Counted from the first letter of the stretch, positions 18,992 through 59,495 are shown. The stretch is 64,000 bases of DNA from Candidatus Helarchaeota ASGARD archaeon Hel_GB_B (GCA_005191425.1 SUPR01000002.1:2453-66452); one strand, 5' to 3'. Notes: generated by a model not told the origin, from the letters alone. Numbers and translations: made by a program.

Positions 18992-19091
18992 TTTAGTCTA
19001 ACCTCAAATAAGAAAGGTATAGCTTATGAAAATACTCCTTTCTTTTAAACTTTTAGGAATTATTAACAAGATTAACAAGATTTGTTGAAAT

Positions 19092-19388
19092 TTATTGAAC
19101 AATAATATTTTTTCTATCATAACCTATTTTCAAAAGAACAGACTTAGCTTTTGACCTTTGGTCACCCTGTAATTCAATTGCATCACCTTTAACGGTGCCA
19201 CCACATGCGCATTTAGATTTTAATTTATTTGTTAAATTATTTAAATCGGTATCTTGATCCAACCCTTCAATGATTGTGACTTTTTTACCATAACGCCGTT
19301 TTACCATCCGAATTTTGATTACAGAGTCTTCTTTGTATAATGTTTGACATATACAGATTTCTTTTGGTAATGAACACTTCGGACAAAT
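19092..19388 (-). CDS. sui1: Translation initiation factor aSUI1 (eIF1 homolog); the conserved N-terminal Zn-ribbon is encoded upstream of the track ORF but has no canonical start codon
   Basis: Residues RRYGKKVTIIEGLD...CACGGTVKGDAIELQGDQR are typical of SUI1. In frame upstream: DLEKSGICPKCSLPKEICICQ, matching archaeal SUI1 (M.EICP.CGLPKELC.CE). The only in-frame candidates are ATA (19407-19409) or ATT (19386-19388). Confidence 0.75.
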   Translation of the reverse strand: MCPKCSLPKEICICQTLYKEDSVIKIRMVKRRYGKKVTIIEGLDQDTDLNNLTNKLKSKCACGGTVKGDAIELQGDQRSKAKSVLLKIGYDRKNIIVQ

Positions 19389-19712
19389 TCCACTTTTTTC
19401 TAAATCTATACAATCACCATTTTAAATTAAGATTATTAAATTAAAAATTGTTTTGAGATTATTTTTTAATTACATATTAATTTATATTATTAATAATTTT
19501 AAATCTTTTTACTATTTTTATACATTCAGCTTCAATGTAAATATTGGAAATTTAGAACTTTATCGGTATAAAAGGGATTAATTATTAAAAAAAATATGTT
19601 TAACCCAACATATAGTAGAATTTGTTTTTTATTTTATTCAATTATTTTAATCTCAGTCAATTTAAGACTGTAAAATGATTAAAAGATATTATAAAGGATT
19701 AAACTATTAAAA

Positions 19713-20879
19713 TCATTTGAAAAATTTAGTCTTATGGCCCATTCCACTTGCAATTTTATGATCAGGGGTGATTTTAACGTCTAATGGTGTTTCATGGTCA
19801 ATATCTAATATATATCCTTCAAATGCCTCTTCTTCAGAGATGCCTAAATTCTCTAATGTACATTTTGACCCATTAGGCTCTTCTCTTATAATATTATCAT
19901 CCTTGTCGAGCAATTTTTTATAATGATCAGGAATTTTAGTATTTAAAGAAATTGCAGGTATTGGTATCCCTTCTTTCCACTGAGATAGATATATTAAATC
20001 ATAAATTTCAGGTAGGTCACTTTTTACCCATTCCAATGCCCTGTCTTCAATTGTAGATGTAATTAGTTTGTGAGAAGAAGTTAACCCTGCTAAGACCGTC
20101 TGAAATTTTGGTCGTGGCATATATACGATGCTACTAAATAATGGAGGAATAGGATAATATAGAAAATAATAGTCAGGTAATTTGTACTTGAACTTTGTGT
20201 TCAGACCATCATAGATATTTCCAAGCATTTCATAATTTGAAAGTTCTGAAAACATATTATACATTGCTGAAGACCAACAAACACAAACCCAATACCTTGA
20301 GTTTTTCCATTCAGGGCGCCTTTCATTACGGATGTCCATTAAGATGTCCATAAGGACATGAGCTGATTTTGATAAATCCTTGACTTTGGCTGGTATTTCT
20401 CTTATTTTCCATCCATATTTCATGTGTCTTCTGTCTAAAAGTTCATCGTCTAAACCAGCAAGATACCAATCAGAAGGGACTCCAGATTCCATATGACCAT
20501 TAAATACAAATAAAATTTCTGAACTAAAATCATCAATTATTGTGAAACTTACGTCTGTCGAGTCTCCATACATTAATTTATTCGTCCCAACTTGTAGGTC
20601 AGACCTAACTGAAATTATATGAGGAACGGTATATAAGACGCTTTTCTCAGCCTCTTCTTGGCTCATCTCTCCGGATAAGATCTTTTTTCCAGTAAATATC
20701 ATATTATTCCAACGATCTGCAGTAATATCATATTGTACTTGCCTAAATTTCCCCTGAAAACTCTTCATATATTCAAGCCCGAATTTTCTAAAGATTTTAT
20801 ATACATTTCTTGACAATGGCAAATAATATTTAGTCCGAGAATCATCAGGTATTTCTCCAAATGAATGTAAACCAGACAT
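19713..20879 (-). CDS. Hypothetical protein (388 aa), no recognisable family; it sits immediately beside an IS element
   Basis: Long intact ORF with host-like composition. No diagnostic motifs. Confidence 0.3.
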   Translation of the reverse strand: MSGLHSFGEIPDDSRTKYYLPLSRNVYKIFRKFGLEYMKSFQGKFRQVQYDITADRWNNMIFTGKKILSGEMSQEEAEKSVLYTVPHIISVRSDLQVGTNKLMYGDSTDVSFTIIDDFSSEILFVFNGHMESGVPSDWYLAGLDDELLDRRHMKYGWKIREIPAKVKDLSKSAHVLMDILMDIRNERRPEWKNSRYWVCVCWSSAMYNMFSELSNYEMLGNIYDGLNTKFKYKLPDYYFLYYPIPPLFSSIVYMPRPKFQTVLAGLTSSHKLITSTIEDRALEWVKSDLPEIYDLIYLSQWKEGIPIPAISLNTKIPDHYKKLLDKDDNIIREEPNGSKCTLENLGISEEEAFEGYILDIDHETPLDVKITPDHKIASGMGHKTKFFK

Positions 20880-21078: not shown

Positions 21079-22520
21079 CTAAAGTTCGACACCTTAATAT
21101 TAAAAAAATAAGTTATAAAAATTGATAGGGGTCCCAGTGGAAATAGACCTCTATTTTAAACCTTATAAACTAATTATTTCTTTATAATTAAATGATGAAC
21201 GTCATAAGTGAAAACATGATAGTTAGAGACTTTAGTCAGCTCTTGGAAGGCGATTTAGGAGCAGACCAAATAAAAGTCTTAATGATATATCTTAATGGAC
21301 TTATAACAGAAGATGAAGCTTCTATTAACAAGTTAGCAAAAAATACAGTAGATTCTTTTAATGAGCGGACTATGAACAGAAAATTAAAAAAATTGGCTTC
21401 AAATTCAAAAGATATACTGAAAAAATGTTTAAAATCTTATCAGCAGATACCGGAGCTGTCCATTGATGAAAATGGACTTTATATATTAGACGAACACATA
21501 ATAAGAAAATGGGGCAAAAAAATAGAGGGCTTGGGCTATTTCTACAGTTCATCAGAGAATAAAAAGGTTAAAGGGTTATCAGAGATAAGTGTTCATTATT
21601 ATAGTAAGAAAATAGAGTATCCTGTAACATATGACATTTTTAGAAAGAAAGATGAATTAGAAAAATATAATAAAGAAGGGCAGTTTAGGAGTAAAAATGA
21701 AATAGCGAGGTCTTTGATAAAGGAAACTATAGAGATAAATAGTAAATGTAAAAACTGGTCATTTGACCCGTATTTTTTTACCAAGGATACCGCTAAATAT
21801 TTGATAGAGCTGGGACAGTACTACGTATCGAGGATCAAACGTAATTGGAAGTGTACATTTAAGAAAAAACATTATTCAATATCAGAATTGTACGATACTC
21901 TAAAAAAGGACGATTTTCAATTAGTAAAAGTGAGACATTATAGTACCAAAAAAGTAAGATATTTTATGGTCGCGGAAAGAAATGTGTTCATAGAAAGGTT
22001 GGGAAATCAGCTGGTATTATATGTAAAGGAATTAAAAAAGGACGAAAAAGGAAATTTAATAGAGAAATATGAAGGTAAATATATGACCCTGGTATCAAAT
22101 ATGCTGGACAAAAGTCATGGTGAAATTATCAAAATATATATGATGCGGTGGCGAATAGAGACTGGATATAGAGACCAAAATCAAAATTTAAGCCTGGACA
22201 AGTGCAGATGGCGGGATATTGAAGGGCAGTACTGCTTTATTGCACTTGTATTCTTAGCATATTTGCTACTGTGCTGGGCACGTTATAAAGGGTATTTAAA
22301 GCCATACTCAGATAATTTAAATACTATTGGGTCTATAAAAGAATCATATAAAAAATATAATAATGAGCTATTTGCTGATTGGATAACTGACCTAAAAAAA
22401 CAATGTAATAACTGTAGGTTATTAAAACTTGTGTACCATTTGATTTATAACAAAAAAATTAATATATACCAGTCTGATTTATATATAAATTCTCAGATAA
22501 CTTGATGTGTCGAACTTTAG
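21079..22520 (+). mobile_element. Complete insertion sequence (~1.44 kb) with 14-bp perfect terminal inverted repeats CTAAAGTTCGACAC / GTGTCGAACTTTAG; encodes one DDE transposase
   Basis: IRL lies at 21079-21092 and IRR at 22507-22520, directly after the transposase stop. The transposase ORF fills the interval. Confidence 0.6.
21192..22505 (+). CDS. DDE-type transposase (IS4/IS701-superfamily-like)
   Basis: The C-terminus has YMMRWRIETGYRDQNQNL...K, the W-x-IE..(K/R) catalytic E-region typical of DDE transposases. Flanked by inverted repeats. Confidence 0.7.
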   Translation: MMNVISENMIVRDFSQLLEGDLGADQIKVLMIYLNGLITEDEASINKLAKNTVDSFNERTMNRKLKKLASNSKDILKKCLKSYQQIPELSIDENGLYILDEHIIRKWGKKIEGLGYFYSSSENKKVKGLSEISVHYYSKKIEYPVTYDIFRKKDELEKYNKEGQFRSKNEIARSLIKETIEINSKCKNWSFDPYFFTKDTAKYLIELGQYYVSRIKRNWKCTFKKKHYSISELYDTLKKDDFQLVKVRHYSTKKVRYFMVAERNVFIERLGNQLVLYVKELKKDEKGNLIEKYEGKYMTLVSNMLDKSHGEIIKIYMMRWRIETGYRDQNQNLSLDKCRWRDIEGQYCFIALVFLAYLLLCWARYKGYLKPYSDNLNTIGSIKESYKKYNNELFADWITDLKKQCNNCRLLKLVYHLIYNKKINIYQSDLYINSQIT

Positions 22521-34199: not shown

Positions 34200-34330
34200 T
34201 GGACCGGCCGGGAATTTCGTCTAAGTCCACAAAGAAATCCAAACGAATTTCATTTTTTTAGAGGACTAAATTTCGAACCCGGGGCCTCCAGATTGCAAGT
34301 CTGACGATCTACCAACTGATCTACCGGCCC
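34200..34330 (-). tRNA. tRNA-Ala (anticodon UGC) interrupted by a ~58-nt intron inside the T-loop (between positions 59/60)
   Basis: Minus strand reads GGGCCGG-TA-GATC-AGTTGGTA-GATC-G-TCAGA-CTTGCAA-TCTGG-AGGCC-CCGGG-TTCGAA[58 nt]T-CCCGG-CCGGTCC-A. The G3:U70 pair is the alanine identity element. The intron contains a 5-bp internal helix (AGTCC/GGACT). Confidence 0.75.
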
Positions 34331-44988: not shown

Positions 44989-46050
44989 TTAATCTTTAAT
45001 TCCAAGAGTAGCAAGATATGTTAAGAAAAATGAAAGTTGTAATTCATTATTAGATGGAACGCTAATATATGAATCGAATTTTGATATTTCTATAGAAATT
45101 TTCTTCTTTAATTCTTCTGTAATAGTTGATTCCATTAAAAATTTATTAAAAGCTTTTAATATCATTTTTCCTGATAAACTTTTTTTAATAAATAGATTTC
45201 TTAAAAAATTCCGCGCATCAACTATATTACCACTTATAGCTAATTTTAGACATTCCCCAATTTCTTTAATTTCTAGTTTCTTTATCATTTCATATATAAA
45301 ATTTTCTGTAATTTTTTTCTTATAACAACTTGCTGCTTCTAATATATTAATTGCAATATTCATATCATTATTAGAATAATAATAAATCAATTTTAAAGCA
45401 TTTTCAGTGATATTAATTTCCTCTGATTCGCATATATATTTAATTTTACTTAAAAATTGTTTTTGACTTAATGGAAATAATTTTAAATTTACACATCTCG
45501 ACCTAATTGGGTCTATTATATTTGAAACTGAATTTGCCACCAATATAAATCTACATATCCTACTATATTTTTCCATAGTCCTCCTTAATGCCTGCTGTAT
45601 TATTCTTTCTAATTTATCCGCTTCATAGATGATCAAGATTTTGTGGTCAGCAGAATCTAACGTTTTAGTTTTTGGATAGTTTCTGATAATTGTAAATAAT
45701 ATATCTATTCTACTTGGACTTTTAGACTTGCCGTGTCTTTTTAGACTTATTTTGCTAGCCTCTACCCAATATGGCATGTATTCATAGTAGAAATTCTTAC
45801 TATCTGAAGCAAAAATCTCTTCAATATTCGCTTTATATGTTGTTCCATATAAGTCATGCACCAAACTTGATACTATTGAGGTCTTTCCTTTAGGATGAAA
45901 ATAACCTACATTTCAAATTCCCGGAGGACCATATAACAACAAGTTCGGTAAATTTCCGCTTTTTACATATTTTTTAATCTGATTTATTATATGTTCTTGT
46001 CCTATAATATTTTCTAATGTATCTGGACGGTATTTTTCTATCCATGACAT
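44989..46050 (-). CDS. rfcS: Replication factor C small subunit; the reading frame is interrupted by an in-frame TGA within a 27-nt insertion in the Walker-A codons
   Basis: Minus-strand translation from ATG at 46048-46050 gives [68 protein letters not shown]... and continues into the 291-aa track ORF (DEAD-like IIYEAD Walker B, SRC motif). Confidence 0.8.
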
Positions 46051-56002: not shown

Positions 56003-56783
56003 GTGATCACTGCCACCCTTTATTTTAATTTTTTTTGATCTATAATATGTTTAAAATTTTAATAATTTTAATATTTACTTTTTTATACATTTAAAACTTT
56101 TTTAAAGACATAATGTTGTCTAAATAATTTAAATTAAATTTATTTCACGATTTTTCAAATTTTTATAAATAAAAATTCATTAAGTCCATTCAAAATAAAA
56201 CCAAAAAAACTCCTTTTTAATATTATTTTAGAATAGATTACTATTTGTTATATTTTAATATTGGAATTGATTTTTTAAATTCATTTTGAGATTTTCAATC
56301 AATAATAGCTATACTCATTCTCATTTTTAAAGTTTTTTTCCATTTATGTTTTTCATTGTTATTTCAAAACCAATTAATTTTAATAAATACAATTAGAAAT
56401 ATAATCAATTTGGTCAATAATAACATATAAAATAATCTATTACAAATCAAAAAAGTTCTTTTTTAGATAATCTTGGAATTAAAATGATATATTGTAAAAA
56501 AGTTTGTTCTAAAATATGATATTTTTTGAAAAATAAATTTTAAAATATAAAAATCTATTAAATATATTAAAACTATTATGTATCTGCTACATTTTTAAGG
56601 ATCTATGATCAAATGTTTTTAATTTTAATTGAATAAATTATAAAATCTATAAAAATAGGTAATTTTTAGTAATGATTTTCTAGAATTTAATAGTTTGAAA
56701 TAAAAAAATTTAAGAATTTGTTTTTTAAAATAAAATATACTATTAAAATTGATTGATACGTCAAAATTATAAAAAGTTTTATA

Positions 56784-56885
56784 GGGCCGGTGATCTAGAA
56801 GCAATATATCGGCAATATTATTGGAAATCGGTATGATATCGCCCTCACGCGGCGAAAATCGTGGGTTCAATTCCCACCCGGCCCA
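56784..56885 (+). tRNA. tRNA-Val (anticodon CAC) interrupted by a ~29-nt intron in the D-loop
   Basis: GGGCCGG-TG-ATCT-AG[~29 nt]TC-GGTA-TGAT-A-TCGCC-CTCACGC-GGCGA-AAATC-GTGGG-TTCAATT-CCCAC-CCGGCCC-A. All stems pair. 102 nt total against a 73-nt mature length. Confidence 0.75.
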
Positions 56886-56909
56886 TAATACTCCAAGAGG
56901 TGAATAACA

Positions 56910-57104
56910 ATTCCAGTAGAAATAAAAGATGAAAATAAATTATTAAAAATTGCAAAAGATTCGACAGAATGCAAAGTTATTAGAGTTGGCGATAAGGTAA
57001 AAATAAAAGTTAGAGGTACAAAATATTTATATACTTATATTACGAATCCTAAATCTTCTGAAGAACTTTTAAAAAAGATCCCTTGTAAAATTATCGAATT
57101 ATAA
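56910..57104 (+). CDS. rpl38e: Ribosomal protein L38e; not in the ORF track because it has no ATG, and the probable start is AUU
   Basis: Translation (I/M)PVEIKDENKLLKIAKDSTECKVIRVGDKVKIKVRGTKYLYTYITNPKSSEELLKKIPCKIIEL matches L38e (MPKQIEEIKDF...VKFKVRCSRYLYTL...). AGGTGA Shine-Dalgarno at 56898-56903 lies 6 nt before ATT. An in-frame TGA sits directly upstream. Confidence 0.65.
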   Translation: MPVEIKDENKLLKIAKDSTECKVIRVGDKVKIKVRGTKYLYTYITNPKSSEELLKKIPCKIIEL

Positions 57105-58016
57105 TAACCAAAATATTAGAAATACTATACCAAAAAAGCCTATGCCAATCCCAATTGAAAGTGGTAGTCCTGGTAATATCTCTCTTTTTTCTAATAATTT
57201 GAATGTAATGATTGCTCCTATTAAAATTCCTATTACGCTTGCAATACATGGTAAAAAAATTGCTATAATTCCATATTGACTAATAAAGGGTGTTTCAAAC
57301 CCAATTTTTAGTGCAGAACAAGTTAACATAGAATAAAAAGTTAAATCACCAAGTCCTATTTCATAATCTTGCATAGAATAACTCATTTCAAATGCAAAAC
57401 TATTCTTTTTTTCATTAAGCTCAATAATTTTCTTGATAGGACCTTTAAAAACAGCAATAATATCGTAAATTGCAAGTCCTATTAATAGTAAAAAACTGGT
57501 CCAGTTTGGTAAAATGAGGCCTAAAAAAGAACCTATTAACCCCCCATAAATTAATAGACTTGCATTTTTAATTTTAACATTTTTAGAAAATTTATCATGA
57601 AAAATCGCTAAAGTCAAGGCAACTCCTGATAAAAAACTTACAATAATGACTATAAAAAATGATAATAAATCTGAAATTGAAAAGATATACAATATACTTA
57701 ATCCAAAAAGAAATAATATCAGTCCACTAATGAAAACAAAACTTATGAAGAAAAAATGTTTTAAAAATTTCTCCTTTTTATATTTCAAAAGTAAATAAAT
57801 TATAAACCCACCAAAACTAGCAATTATTATCAAAATCATTGCATTAATCACCCCTATTAAAGGGTTCAAGTTTCCTTGGTTCTCAGGGATGAACGCTGCA
57901 TTAAAATCGAAAAAACCTGAAATTAAGCCAACAATAGAAAAACCAATTGCTATAAACATTGTTATAATTAACGGAACTAACCTTTTTCGAGTTTTTACTA
58001 CGATTTCAGAAATCAA
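57099..58016 (-). CDS. Presenilin/signal-peptide-peptidase-like intramembrane aspartyl protease (A22 family homolog)
   Basis: Polytopic membrane protein with YD (LAIYDIIAVF) and GxGD (EIGLGDLTFYS) motifs, plus a PAL-like PGLP motif near the C-terminus. Confidence 0.5.
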   Translation of the reverse strand: MISEIVVKTRKRLVPLIITMFIAIGFSIVGLISGFFDFNAAFIPENQGNLNPLIGVINAMILIIIASFGGFIIYLLLKYKKEKFLKHFFFISFVFISGLILFLFGLSILYIFSISDLLSFFIVIIVSFLSGVALTLAIFHDKFSKNVKIKNASLLIYGGLIGSFLGLILPNWTSFLLLIGLAIYDIIAVFKGPIKKIIELNEKKNSFAFEMSYSMQDYEIGLGDLTFYSMLTCSALKIGFETPFISQYGIIAIFLPCIASVIGILIGAIITFKLLEKREILPGLPLSIGIGIGFFGIVFLIFWLL

Positions 58017-58205: not shown

Positions 58206-59495
58206 TCACAAAATTTGAAATTCTTCGCCTAAATTAGGTACAAAAGTCGATATACCTTTCTCTTCCATAGCTGAATAAAGACCATCTGTATTATCTTCAT
58301 CGCCATGCACTATAAAAAACGTAGTATTTCCATTGGATTTATTATGTATATAATCTACAAATGAGAGTAATTCCGATTTTCCACTATGGGACGAAAGCGG
58401 AAAATGTTTTATTTCTGCTTTAATTTTGGTTTTTCCGTCCTTCCAAATTTGTGTTTCTAAAATCTGTCGCCCAAGAGTATCTGGTAATTGAAATGAAACC
58501 AAATAGATTGCATTATCTGGATTGTTTATAAGCTCTTCAGAATAAAAAATTGCGGTCCCGCCTTTTAACATTCCCGAAGGTGCTATTATAACCCCTGGAT
58601 TTGAAACTGCATTTTGGCGCTCTAAATGCTTGTTTTTTCCAACAGAAATAAAATATGAATTTTCAACAGCATTTCTATATAATTCTTCGTCTCTCAATAT
58701 TTCTAGATGATTTAATAATGCTCTACTTACACTCCGAGCCATCCCATCTACATATACTGGAAATTTCACATTATAATGGTGCAAAATACACATTATTTCC
58801 TGCGACCTACCTACTCCAAAAGCGGGTACAAGAACAGTGCCGTTTTTTGATACAACTATATTCTCAATTGCGCTAACAAAATCCTTTTCTACTTCTACTC
58901 TAGGTGGATGGTCTGAATTTCCATATGTCGACTCCATAATTACATAATCTATTTTAGGAAAATTGTTGCTCATCCCATTTAGTAATCGAGTGGTCCTATG
59001 ATTAACATCGCCTGTATATAATATTCTTTTACCATTTATTTTACATATAAATGATGCACTCCCTGGAATATGACCTGCATCTATAATTAAAAATTCAATT
59101 CCCTTCAAATGGTGCCATAAAGTTTGATTATAGGAAAATAAAGATGTTTTATTTATCATGTCCATTAATTCATTGCGCATAAATGGTAGATAATATTCTG
59201 ATAATCTTAACATATCATCAATTAAGATTTTCGATAGAACTCTTGTCGTAGGTGTCATTATTAGAATTGGGCTTTTTGACCCACTAAAAAATAATGGCAA
59301 TCCTCCAGAATGATCTAAATGAGCATGACTCAAAAATATTATGTCTAAATTTTTTACATCAAAATCTAATGGCGGTAAAGTTGGCTTTTTGTCCATTAAT
59401 ATCCCATAATCGAACAAATATACCCTATTTTTACTTTCTAATTCTATTGCTTGTCCGCCTATTTGTTTACATCCACCTATAAATTTCAGTTTCAA
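58206..59495 (-). CDS. Metallo-beta-lactamase / beta-CASP family ribonuclease (aCPSF2-like)
   Basis: LSHAHLDHSGGLP (HxHxDH motif 2), further Asp/His motifs, and a beta-CASP-length C-terminal half. Confidence 0.7.
   Translation of the reverse strand: MKLKFIGGCKQIGGQAIELESKNRVYLFDYGILMDKKPTLPPLDFDVKNLDIIFLSHAHLDHSGGLPLFFSGSKSPILIMTPTTRVLSKILIDDMLRLSEYYLPFMRNELMDMINKTSLFSYNQTLWHHLKGIEFLIIDAGHIPGSASFICKINGKRILYTGDVNHRTTRLLNGMSNNFPKIDYVIMESTYGNSDHPPRVEVEKDFVSAIENIVVSKNGTVLVPAFGVGRSQEIMCILHHYNVKFPVYVDGMARSVSRALLNHLEILRDEELYRNAVENSYFISVGKNKHLERQNAVSNPGVIIAPSGMLKGGTAIFYSEELINNPDNAIYLVSFQLPDTLGRQILETQIWKDGKTKIKAEIKHFPLSSHSGKSELLSFVDYIHNKSNGNTTFFIVHGDEDNTDGLYSAMEEKGISTFVPNLGEEFQIL

Follow-up and report, generated by a model that had tools for sequence, protein, structure and literature searches.

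A Shine-Dalgarno-positioned AUA as the probable start codon of aIF1 in one clade of Helarchaeota, and its possible part in autoregulation

Where does translation begin in a gene whose conserved N-terminus is encoded ahead of any canonical start codon? The case considered here comes from a stretch of 64,000 nucleotides of Candidatus Helarchaeota archaeon Hel_GB_B (GCA_005191425.1, SUPR01000002.1:2453-66452), which as a whole is called the window below, and concerns its gene for the translation initiation factor aIF1, a SUI1 protein. Helarchaeota are a branch of the Asgard archaea (Promethearchaeati), and no closer relatives of eukaryotes than the Asgard archaea are known. The gene is intact and of ordinary length, and its translation very probably starts at an AUA codon placed three nucleotides behind a Shine-Dalgarno (SD) signal, an arrangement that is unchanged in all seven diverged lineages compared. 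Such a start could allow the factor to limit its own synthesis. To the whole account, an intact aIF1 made from an SD-placed AUA with self-limiting feedback, we assign a probability of roughly 55%.

Reading frame and start site of aIF1

Read from stop to stop, the frame encodes a complete aIF1/SUI1 protein (Pfam PF01253, 3.5e-21, 75.9 bits with the cutoff at 25.5). Its score with the NCBIfam profile PRK00939 (NF002096) is 131.3 bits, where the cutoff is 98; when the protein is read from the ATA, its residues 6-104 correspond to profile positions 2-101, and its length is 105 aa, as compared with the 102 positions of that profile. The segment encoded upstream of the first ATG, IDLEKSGICPKCSLPKEICIC, aligns to the N-domain of aIF1 from M. 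jannaschii (PDB 4mo0, residues 4-100, E=4e-31). The stretch CPKCSLPKEICIC fits the zinc-knuckle motif of archaeal aIF1, with Ser replacing Gly; the knuckle CX2CGLPX3C(phi)C is present in 64% of archaeal aIF1 sequences (PMC6237735). As in the aIF1 of M. jannaschii and P. abyssi, an N-terminal CX2C-x-LP-X3-C-phi-C knuckle is followed by the SUI1 alpha/beta core and the basic KRRYGK loop. From the upstream stop, the 5' part of the frame reads TAA AAT GGT GAT TGT ATA GAT TTA GAA AAA AGT GGA ATT TGT CCG AAG TGT and goes on with TCA TTA CCA AAA GAA ATC TGT ATA TGT, the natural leader at the start site being AAAAUGGUGAUUGUAUAGAUUUAGAA. None of the 38 codons from that stop to the first ATG is ATG, GTG or TTG. 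Together with the homology to 4mo0, this bears out the first-pass annotation of this DNA, in which a SUI1 zinc-ribbon N-terminus had been noticed ahead of the first ATG without any of these three codons. A listing of the open reading frames (ORFs) of the window gives just the 71-aa aIF1 ORF that begins at the ATG.

For the comparison, close relatives were taken from the protein database and from contig look-ups, and the DNA was fetched for each. The nearest database protein, P0001 from NCBI metagenome-assembled genomes (MAGs) of Candidatus Helarchaeota, is 98% identical and is annotated as MDLEKSGICPKC, that is, MDLEKSG from the ATA; the NCBI annotation of this MAG uses the ATA start independently. 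A scan of GTDB genomes gave no close relatives, its top matches being 54-55% identical. Seven lineages from separate assemblies, with about 70-80% protein identity, were compared: the window itself (equal to loci L009-L011, from three near-identical NCBI MAGs whose aIF1 5' region is the same as that of the window), L012/13/16/17/23, L014, L015, L018/19/24, L020/21 and L022. A wider aIF1 set was obtained by a metagenome scan with a Helarchaeota aIF1 alignment (80 loci) and by a genome scan (8 loci). An alignment with the SUI1 genes of close relatives had been suggested in the first pass as a check on the gene, and in this alignment all seven lineages share the same 5' end of SD, three nucleotides and ATA.

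In every lineage (7/7) an in-frame stop is followed by 1-4 codons, by GGT GAT (TGT/TAT/AAT) ATA (GAT/GAC/GGT), by 4-6 variable codons and by (ATT/ATA/ATC) TGT CCN, and none of the seven has a canonical start ahead of the zinc knuckle. At the DNA level an AT-rich, unconserved upstream region gives way to the invariant GGTGAT..TATAG, after which the codons vary until the Cys codons are reached. The codon after the ATA specifies Asp in six lineages and Gly in L014, its first base G being always kept. As an exact string, GGTGATNNTATAG is present a single time in the window and a single time in each clade locus (16/16, at the same position), and it is absent from the 92 other loci. Is this invariance what one would expect of ordinary codons? 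Synonymous sites among the lineages are saturated, the proportion of synonymous differences (pS) being about 0.8, and among the codons for invariant degenerate amino acids 3 of 54 are invariant in nucleotides. The expectation that GGT, GAT and ATA are jointly invariant as ordinary codons is then about (0.056)^3, or about 2e-4. The residues flanking GGT-GAT..ATA are not conserved even as amino acids. Because synonymous sites are saturated elsewhere in the gene, the block is kept as RNA and not as protein. Its stop lies one codon before GGT in most lineages, and since the stop sits so close and the codon in between (AAT, AAC, TAT or AAA) does not count among the near-cognate starts, the Gly-Asp pair cannot belong to the protein. 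Judged from its pattern of conservation, the block is a Shine-Dalgarno sequence with a 3-nt spacer and an AUA start.

GGUGAU is perfectly complementary to the conserved 3' end of archaeal 16S rRNA. The 3-nt spacer is similar to the distances between SD and start in other genes of the clade and to that in the aEF1A mRNA of P. abyssi, whose model mRNA carries GGAGGUGAU, UUAA (4 nt) and AUG (PMC6237735). RNAalifold leaves the SD and the ATA unpaired and gives only a weak helix within the coding region (-3.7 kcal/mol), and no Rfam family is matched in 19000-19760. The TATAG was also considered as an archaeal TATA box and was rejected by inspection, the window reading TGTATAG and GGTGAT being left unexplained.

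The sequence behind the ATA gives a second line of evidence. For the 27 codons that begin with the Ile preceding the first Cys and run up to the internal ATG (19388-19308), the proportion of nonsynonymous differences (pN) is 0.10 and pS is 0.83, while in the 71-codon C-terminal core pN is 0.16, that is, the core is under looser constraint than the codons upstream of it. The four Cys and the LP motif are invariant in the aIF1 alignment (A1). By these measures the zinc-knuckle segment upstream of the first ATG is translated and under strong purifying selection. From the ATA to the Ile codon the tail has a length of 18, 21 or 24 nt, in each case divisible by three, and contains no stop in any lineage, and ATA-GAT aligns with ATG/TTG/GTG-GAT AAT ATC TGC (M-D-N-I-C) of the sister clade. 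Because of the pN and pS values, the invariant Cys and LP residues, the in-frame tail and the sister-clade alignment, the start is placed at the ATA and the 71-aa protein is excluded as the main product; we are thus fairly sure that AUA is the start codon of aIF1. Two such codons had been offered in the first pass. The ATA after a GGTGA-like motif gains support from the invariance of both elements in 7/7 lineages, and the ATT has to be rejected, as this codon is ATT, ATA or ATC depending on the lineage, stands for the Ile of ICPxC, which is universally conserved, and is 21-27 nt away from the SD.

Could the true product be the 71-aa protein beginning with MVKRR, with the upstream zinc knuckle as an untranslated relic, or could long and short isoforms both be made? 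Prodigal-type finders call a 71-aa aIF1 in four lineages, the Pfam SUI1 core starts close to Met35, and the Met is nearly specific to the clade. Set against these points are the tighter constraint on the upstream 27 codons at pS of about 0.8 and the invariance of all four Cys and of LP, neither of which fits a relic. A relic would also be expected to gain stops or frameshifts, of which there are none in the seven lineages, and the internal ATG has no conserved SD, the preceding Arg codon varying among CGG, AGA, AGG and CGC. This reading is therefore improbable, though a minor short isoform from Met35 is conceivable. Position 35, just before KRRYGK, has M in 16/16 ATA-start loci (L009-L024) and in 1 of 79 other aIF1 loci, where V, I or L is found. 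Met35 and the lost canonical start thus occur together; as a further possibility, an isoform with only the core might be made when the AUA is rejected. Compared with its sister clade, the ATA clade has Met for Ile or Val at this position, a variable N-terminal tail four residues longer, and GDQR for GDHR, the latter being the form of most archaea. In eukaryotic eIF1, too, a Q stands where the ATA clade has the Q of GDQR.

An ATG mini-ORF that overlaps in another frame had been described in the first pass, with an indel or frameshift and reinitiation coupling among the explanations put forward. The mini-ORF is indeed present, with its TAG overlapping the ATA by two bases, and GTG-ATN-RTA-TAG is found in all seven lineages. 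In addition, the aIF1 of S. solfataricus P2 was once annotated with a 'frameshift', and that interruption, the one published for an aIF1, was a sequencing error (PMC8211752). Is the mini-ORF joined to the aIF1 frame in Helarchaeota by an indel from sequencing or assembly, by programmed frameshifting, or by termination-reinitiation? The conserved part of the mini-ORF has a simpler origin: its GTG is automatic because it is contained in GGTGAT, of which it is the core, and its TAG is forced because the ATA is followed by the conserved G opening codon 2, which is Asp in the sister clade as well. Its ATG is present in three of the seven lineages (the window, L014 and L022), where the codon before GGT is AAT or TAT, and is missing from the other four, with AAC (L012), GAC (L015), AAA (L018) or TTC (L020) in that place. 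An assembly indel is ruled out by the identical sequence of three same-species MAGs and by the same architecture in six other lineages, the frame relationship being identical in at least 11 independent assemblies. As to a programmed frameshift, the aIF1 frame can be reached only by a -1 shift at (A/G)TA-TAG, which is not slippery and has no re-pairing potential, and the upstream ATG is limited to the 3/7 lineages. Termination-reinitiation is not supported either, since the region before GGTGAT is unconserved and neither the ATG nor the GTG has an SD of its own. The comparative data effectively refute this set of explanations, which keep a very small probability, and on the same sequence comparison we judge the mini-ORF incidental.

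Start codons of L38e, of other genes and of other archaea

Is aIF1 the only gene of this kind in the window? In the first pass it had been linked to the gene of ribosomal protein L38e. The L38e ORF of the window contains no ATG, GTG or TTG anywhere; its start is probably the ATA (56904) or the ATT (56910), directly after AGAGGTGA, and the NCBI protein (P0079) is annotated from the ATA. Four relatives were recovered with the conserved presenilin neighbour as an anchor. The gene of L103 reads GAGGTGATTAAT-ATG-CCC and that of L106 reads GGAGGTGT-ATG-ACA-ATA-CCA. In L104/L105 the sequence is GGTGAAGAGAG-ATT-CCC, where the ATT is the sole option after an in-frame TGA and is the start annotated by NCBI. 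The sister clade (L108) has ATG. Across four close lineages the L38e start is thus ATG, ATG shifted by two codons, ATT or ATA. The link made earlier is right in that L38e lacks a canonical start, but the data point more to a tolerance of AUA/AUU in some lineages than to a mechanism shared with aIF1. In a search of the protein database one called homologue of L38e was found, the same-species NCBI entry, and the ATG-start relatives are called on their own contigs. L38e is probably missed by gene callers in some lineages.

Upstream of L38e there is a tRNA-Val(CAC)-like gene whose D-loop would be split by an intron of some 27-30 nt, which is not a canonical place for one; the gene ends 9 nt before the L38e SD. 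This candidate is missed by ARAGORN, even with the option for anticodon-loop introns, and Rfam matches only its 3' part (56823-56879, with 28.7 bits where the gathering score is 29). The arrangement of tRNA and then L38e is also found in L103, L104 and L106, and it suggests that the two may be co-transcribed.

For the rest of the window, canonical starts are the rule. Two of about 55 genes, aIF1 and L38e, lack a suitably placed canonical start. Seven other ORFs have a frame that extends upstream; six of them match NCBIfam, and in all six the canonical start agrees with the N-terminus of the profile. A search of the ORFs with long extensions and of the intergenic gaps of the window gave L38e as the only further non-canonical start. 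To judge from the ORFs of the window, non-canonical starts would not be general in this genome. The genes for the beta-CASP RNase and the presenilin homologue start with TTG, and these TTG starts are conserved across the clade.

What are the aIF1 start codons in other archaea? In about 85 other archaeal aIF1 loci, with locus L095 left out of the tally, an ATG lies 1-8 codons before the first Cys, mostly 4-5; the gene of the window differs from these in starting with AUA. Among the sister Helarchaeota, locus L025 has a TTG start, and the literal JGI translations of three aIF1 proteins of the sister clade (P0008, P0009 and P0019) begin with L or V, corresponding to TTG or GTG. Weak aIF1 starts may therefore be a broader tendency of Helarchaeota, while the AUA start is limited to one Helarchaeota clade among the loci sampled. 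A second group of truncated aIF1 calls (P0077/P0078) was also considered. In the ANME-2 loci that match them, L001-L006, the gene starts normally with GGAGG-ATG, and the calls are artefacts.

A possible self-limiting circuit

Why would an initiation factor keep such a poor start codon? A suboptimal start is found here on the factor's own gene and is conserved by selection, the ATA and the SD being invariant in 7/7 lineages at saturated synonymous divergence. In S. solfataricus aIF1 blocks the formation of the 30S-aIF1A-aIF2-Met-tRNAi complex on an AUU mRNA and destabilises non-AUG complexes, and binding to the 30S subunit close to the P site is known for the aIF1 of both S. solfataricus and P. 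abyssi (PMC4705826; PMC6237735). The following scenario may be proposed. Pairing of the GGUGAU, 3 nt upstream, would put the AUA into the P site, where the initiator Met-tRNA would read it with a mismatch at the third position, so that initiation would be inefficient. As aIF1 destabilises initiation complexes on non-AUG codons, a high level of the factor would suppress its own mRNA and a low level would relieve it. The result would be a homeostatic negative feedback on the level of aIF1 and on how strictly start codons are chosen. From the comparative analysis, we rate the chance that the AUA start serves autoregulation of aIF1 at about even.

The scenario has its counterparts in the other two domains. 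In bacteria IF3 autoregulates infC through an AUU start, and in eukaryotes eIF1 does so through a poor context of its AUG (Ivanov et al. 2010, cited in PMC6237735 and PMC4705826). aIF1 and IF3 bind similar sites on the small subunit and both reject AUU (PMC4705826). As in bacterial infC, a factor that rejects non-canonical starts has a conserved AUH-class start behind a good SD, and since this start stands on the rejecting factor's own gene in both cases, the same logic of negative feedback applies. The likeness has limits: aIF1 and IF3 are unrelated proteins, the codon is AUA in one and AUU in the other, and while the infC feature is widespread in its domain, that of aIF1 is confined to one Helarchaeota clade and its feedback is deduced. 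Eukaryotic eIF1, a homologue of aIF1, is likewise a stringency factor made from a suboptimal start site. It keeps its AUG and has a weakened Kozak context in a scanning system, whereas the aIF1 studied here would use a near-cognate codon positioned by SD pairing. That the two regulatory features go back to a common ancestor is unlikely, because the start is ATG, TTG or GTG in sister Helarchaeota and in other archaea.

The other explanation that has to be weighed is a relaxed stringency of the whole lineage, in which AUA and AUU would be ordinary weak starts and the ATA of aIF1 an ancestral, fixed change from ATG without any specific role in regulation. Several observations fit it: L38e of the window has no canonical start, its start is labile among the four close lineages, TTG starts are common and conserved in the clade, and aIF1 of the sister clade has TTG or GTG besides ATG. 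What it leaves without a reason is the behaviour of aIF1 itself, where the ATA is fixed in 7/7 lineages despite saturated synonymous divergence although a single A-to-G change would restore ATG, while the start of L38e does flip. Nor would one expect, under general relaxation, that a canonical start in a suitable place would be missing from only 2 of about 55 genes of the window, or that one of the two is the very gene that sets stringency. Taken alone, relaxation is therefore the unlikely member of the pair, still well ahead of the 71-aa product. The two explanations are not exclusive, because low aIF1 made from an AUA could itself cause tolerance of AUH starts elsewhere. A low steady-state level of the factor could explain why other AUH starts, such as those of L38e, drift in and out.

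Feedback through an SD-placed AUA has to be set against several points that weigh in the opposite direction. The L38e genes show a tolerance of the clade for AUH starts on mRNAs led by an SD. This is the chief argument for relaxed stringency, to which the ATA of aIF1 may be due. A conserved weak start alone is no proof of autoregulation, because TTG is also stable in the beta-CASP and presenilin genes. The pairing of the aIF1 SD is assumed from the general archaeal consensus of the 16S 3' end, as the window does not contain this part of the organism's own 16S rRNA. Finally, discrimination by aIF1 is known for AUU and other non-AUG codons in Sulfolobus, and not for AUA or in Asgard archaea (PMC4705826; PMC6237735).

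Other features of the window and implications

The coordinates of all features are collected in Table 1. The G+C content of the window is 28.5%. A DDE (IS4-like) transposase gene lies 1.8 kb upstream of aIF1. The gene for a small subunit of RFC is broken within Walker A (LLYGPPGI*NVGYFHPKGKTS) by an in-frame TGA, and excising 27 nt would restore GPPGIGKT. Possible readings of the interruption are a mini-intron, an insertion and a pseudogene; when the insert was folded as RNA in a simple way, no significant structure was obtained (z=-0.9). The sole match in the window at the Rfam gathering level is a 57-nt tRNA (31.7 bits) that is not called by ARAGORN and may be an intron-containing or otherwise atypical tRNA gene.

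Table 1. Positions of the features discussed, counted from the first nucleotide of the window unless a locus is named
Feature	Position	Strand	Remarks
aIF1 (SUI1) coding sequence, AUA start to TAA stop	19409..19092	minus	105 codons; Pfam, NCBIfam and PDB 4mo0 matches
In-frame TAA upstream of aIF1	19424-19422	minus	one codon before the SD
Shine-Dalgarno GGTGAT (GGUGAU)	19418-19413	minus	3 nt before ATA; only conserved upstream block
ATA, proposed AUA initiation codon of aIF1	19409-19407	minus	invariant in 7/7 diverged lineages
ATT (Ile of ICPxC) in aIF1	19388-19386	minus	
Zinc-knuckle coding segment CPKCSLPKEICIC	19385..19347	minus	CX2C-S-LP-X3-C-I-C
First in-frame ATG, Met35 of AUA-initiated aIF1	19307-19305	minus	usual gene-caller start, 71-aa product
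aIF1 stop TAA	19094-19092	minus	
Mini-ORF ATG-GTG-ATT-GTA-TAG (MVIV*)	19420-19406	minus	one base downstream of aIF1 frame; overlaps SD and ATA
Ribosomal protein L38e ORF	56904-57104	plus	AGAGGTGA-ATA-ACA-ATT-CCA-GTA-GAA; Pfam L38e 7e-9
L38e relatives	L103:3419-3688, L104:3419-3613, L106:3432-3632, L108:3421-3615		
Presenilin-family intramembrane protease homologue	57099-58016	minus	TTG start
beta-CASP RNase	58206-59495	minus	TTG start
tRNA-Val(CAC)-like gene	56783-56890	plus	
RFC small-subunit gene	44989-46050	minus	in-frame TGA 45915-45913; insert about 45889-45915
tRNA, Rfam match	34274-34330	minus	
DDE (IS4-like) transposase	21192-22505	plus	

The finding has a direct consequence for annotation. 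Automatic callers shorten the aIF1 relatives, which are 72-80% identical, to 71 aa beginning with MVKRR or MVRRR (P0023, P0026, P0041 and P0043), and other called relatives have 82 or 92 aa from an internal TTG in or after the zinc knuckle. Standard gene callers thus cut an essential aIF1 to 71-92 aa, which bears on the annotation of Asgard MAGs and on inventories of informational genes. The ATA coordinates of aIF1 are already in the automatic annotation of NCBI; what is new is the evidence from comparison and the functional reading. In the literature of PMC and bioRxiv, including the main reviews of archaeal initiation, no non-canonical start or autoregulation of an archaeal aIF1 was found, and AUA starts in Asgard archaea were not found described there. 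The aIF1 gene of this clade is also a rare documented case of an AUA start in archaea.

That fidelity factors limit themselves through a poor start is textbook knowledge in bacteria (the AUU of IF3/infC) and in eukaryotes (the context of eIF1). The SD-plus-AUA start of aIF1 is a testable candidate for the missing archaeal case. A wider scenario may be put forward tentatively, with odds below even: aIF1 made from a selected AUA would act as a thermostat of stringency, feeding back on itself and setting the output of other SD-led genes with AUA or AUU starts, such as L38e. If this holds, it would be the archaeal counterpart of the eIF1/eIF5 circuit and of the IF3/infC loop, and the same design would have appeared in each of the three domains.

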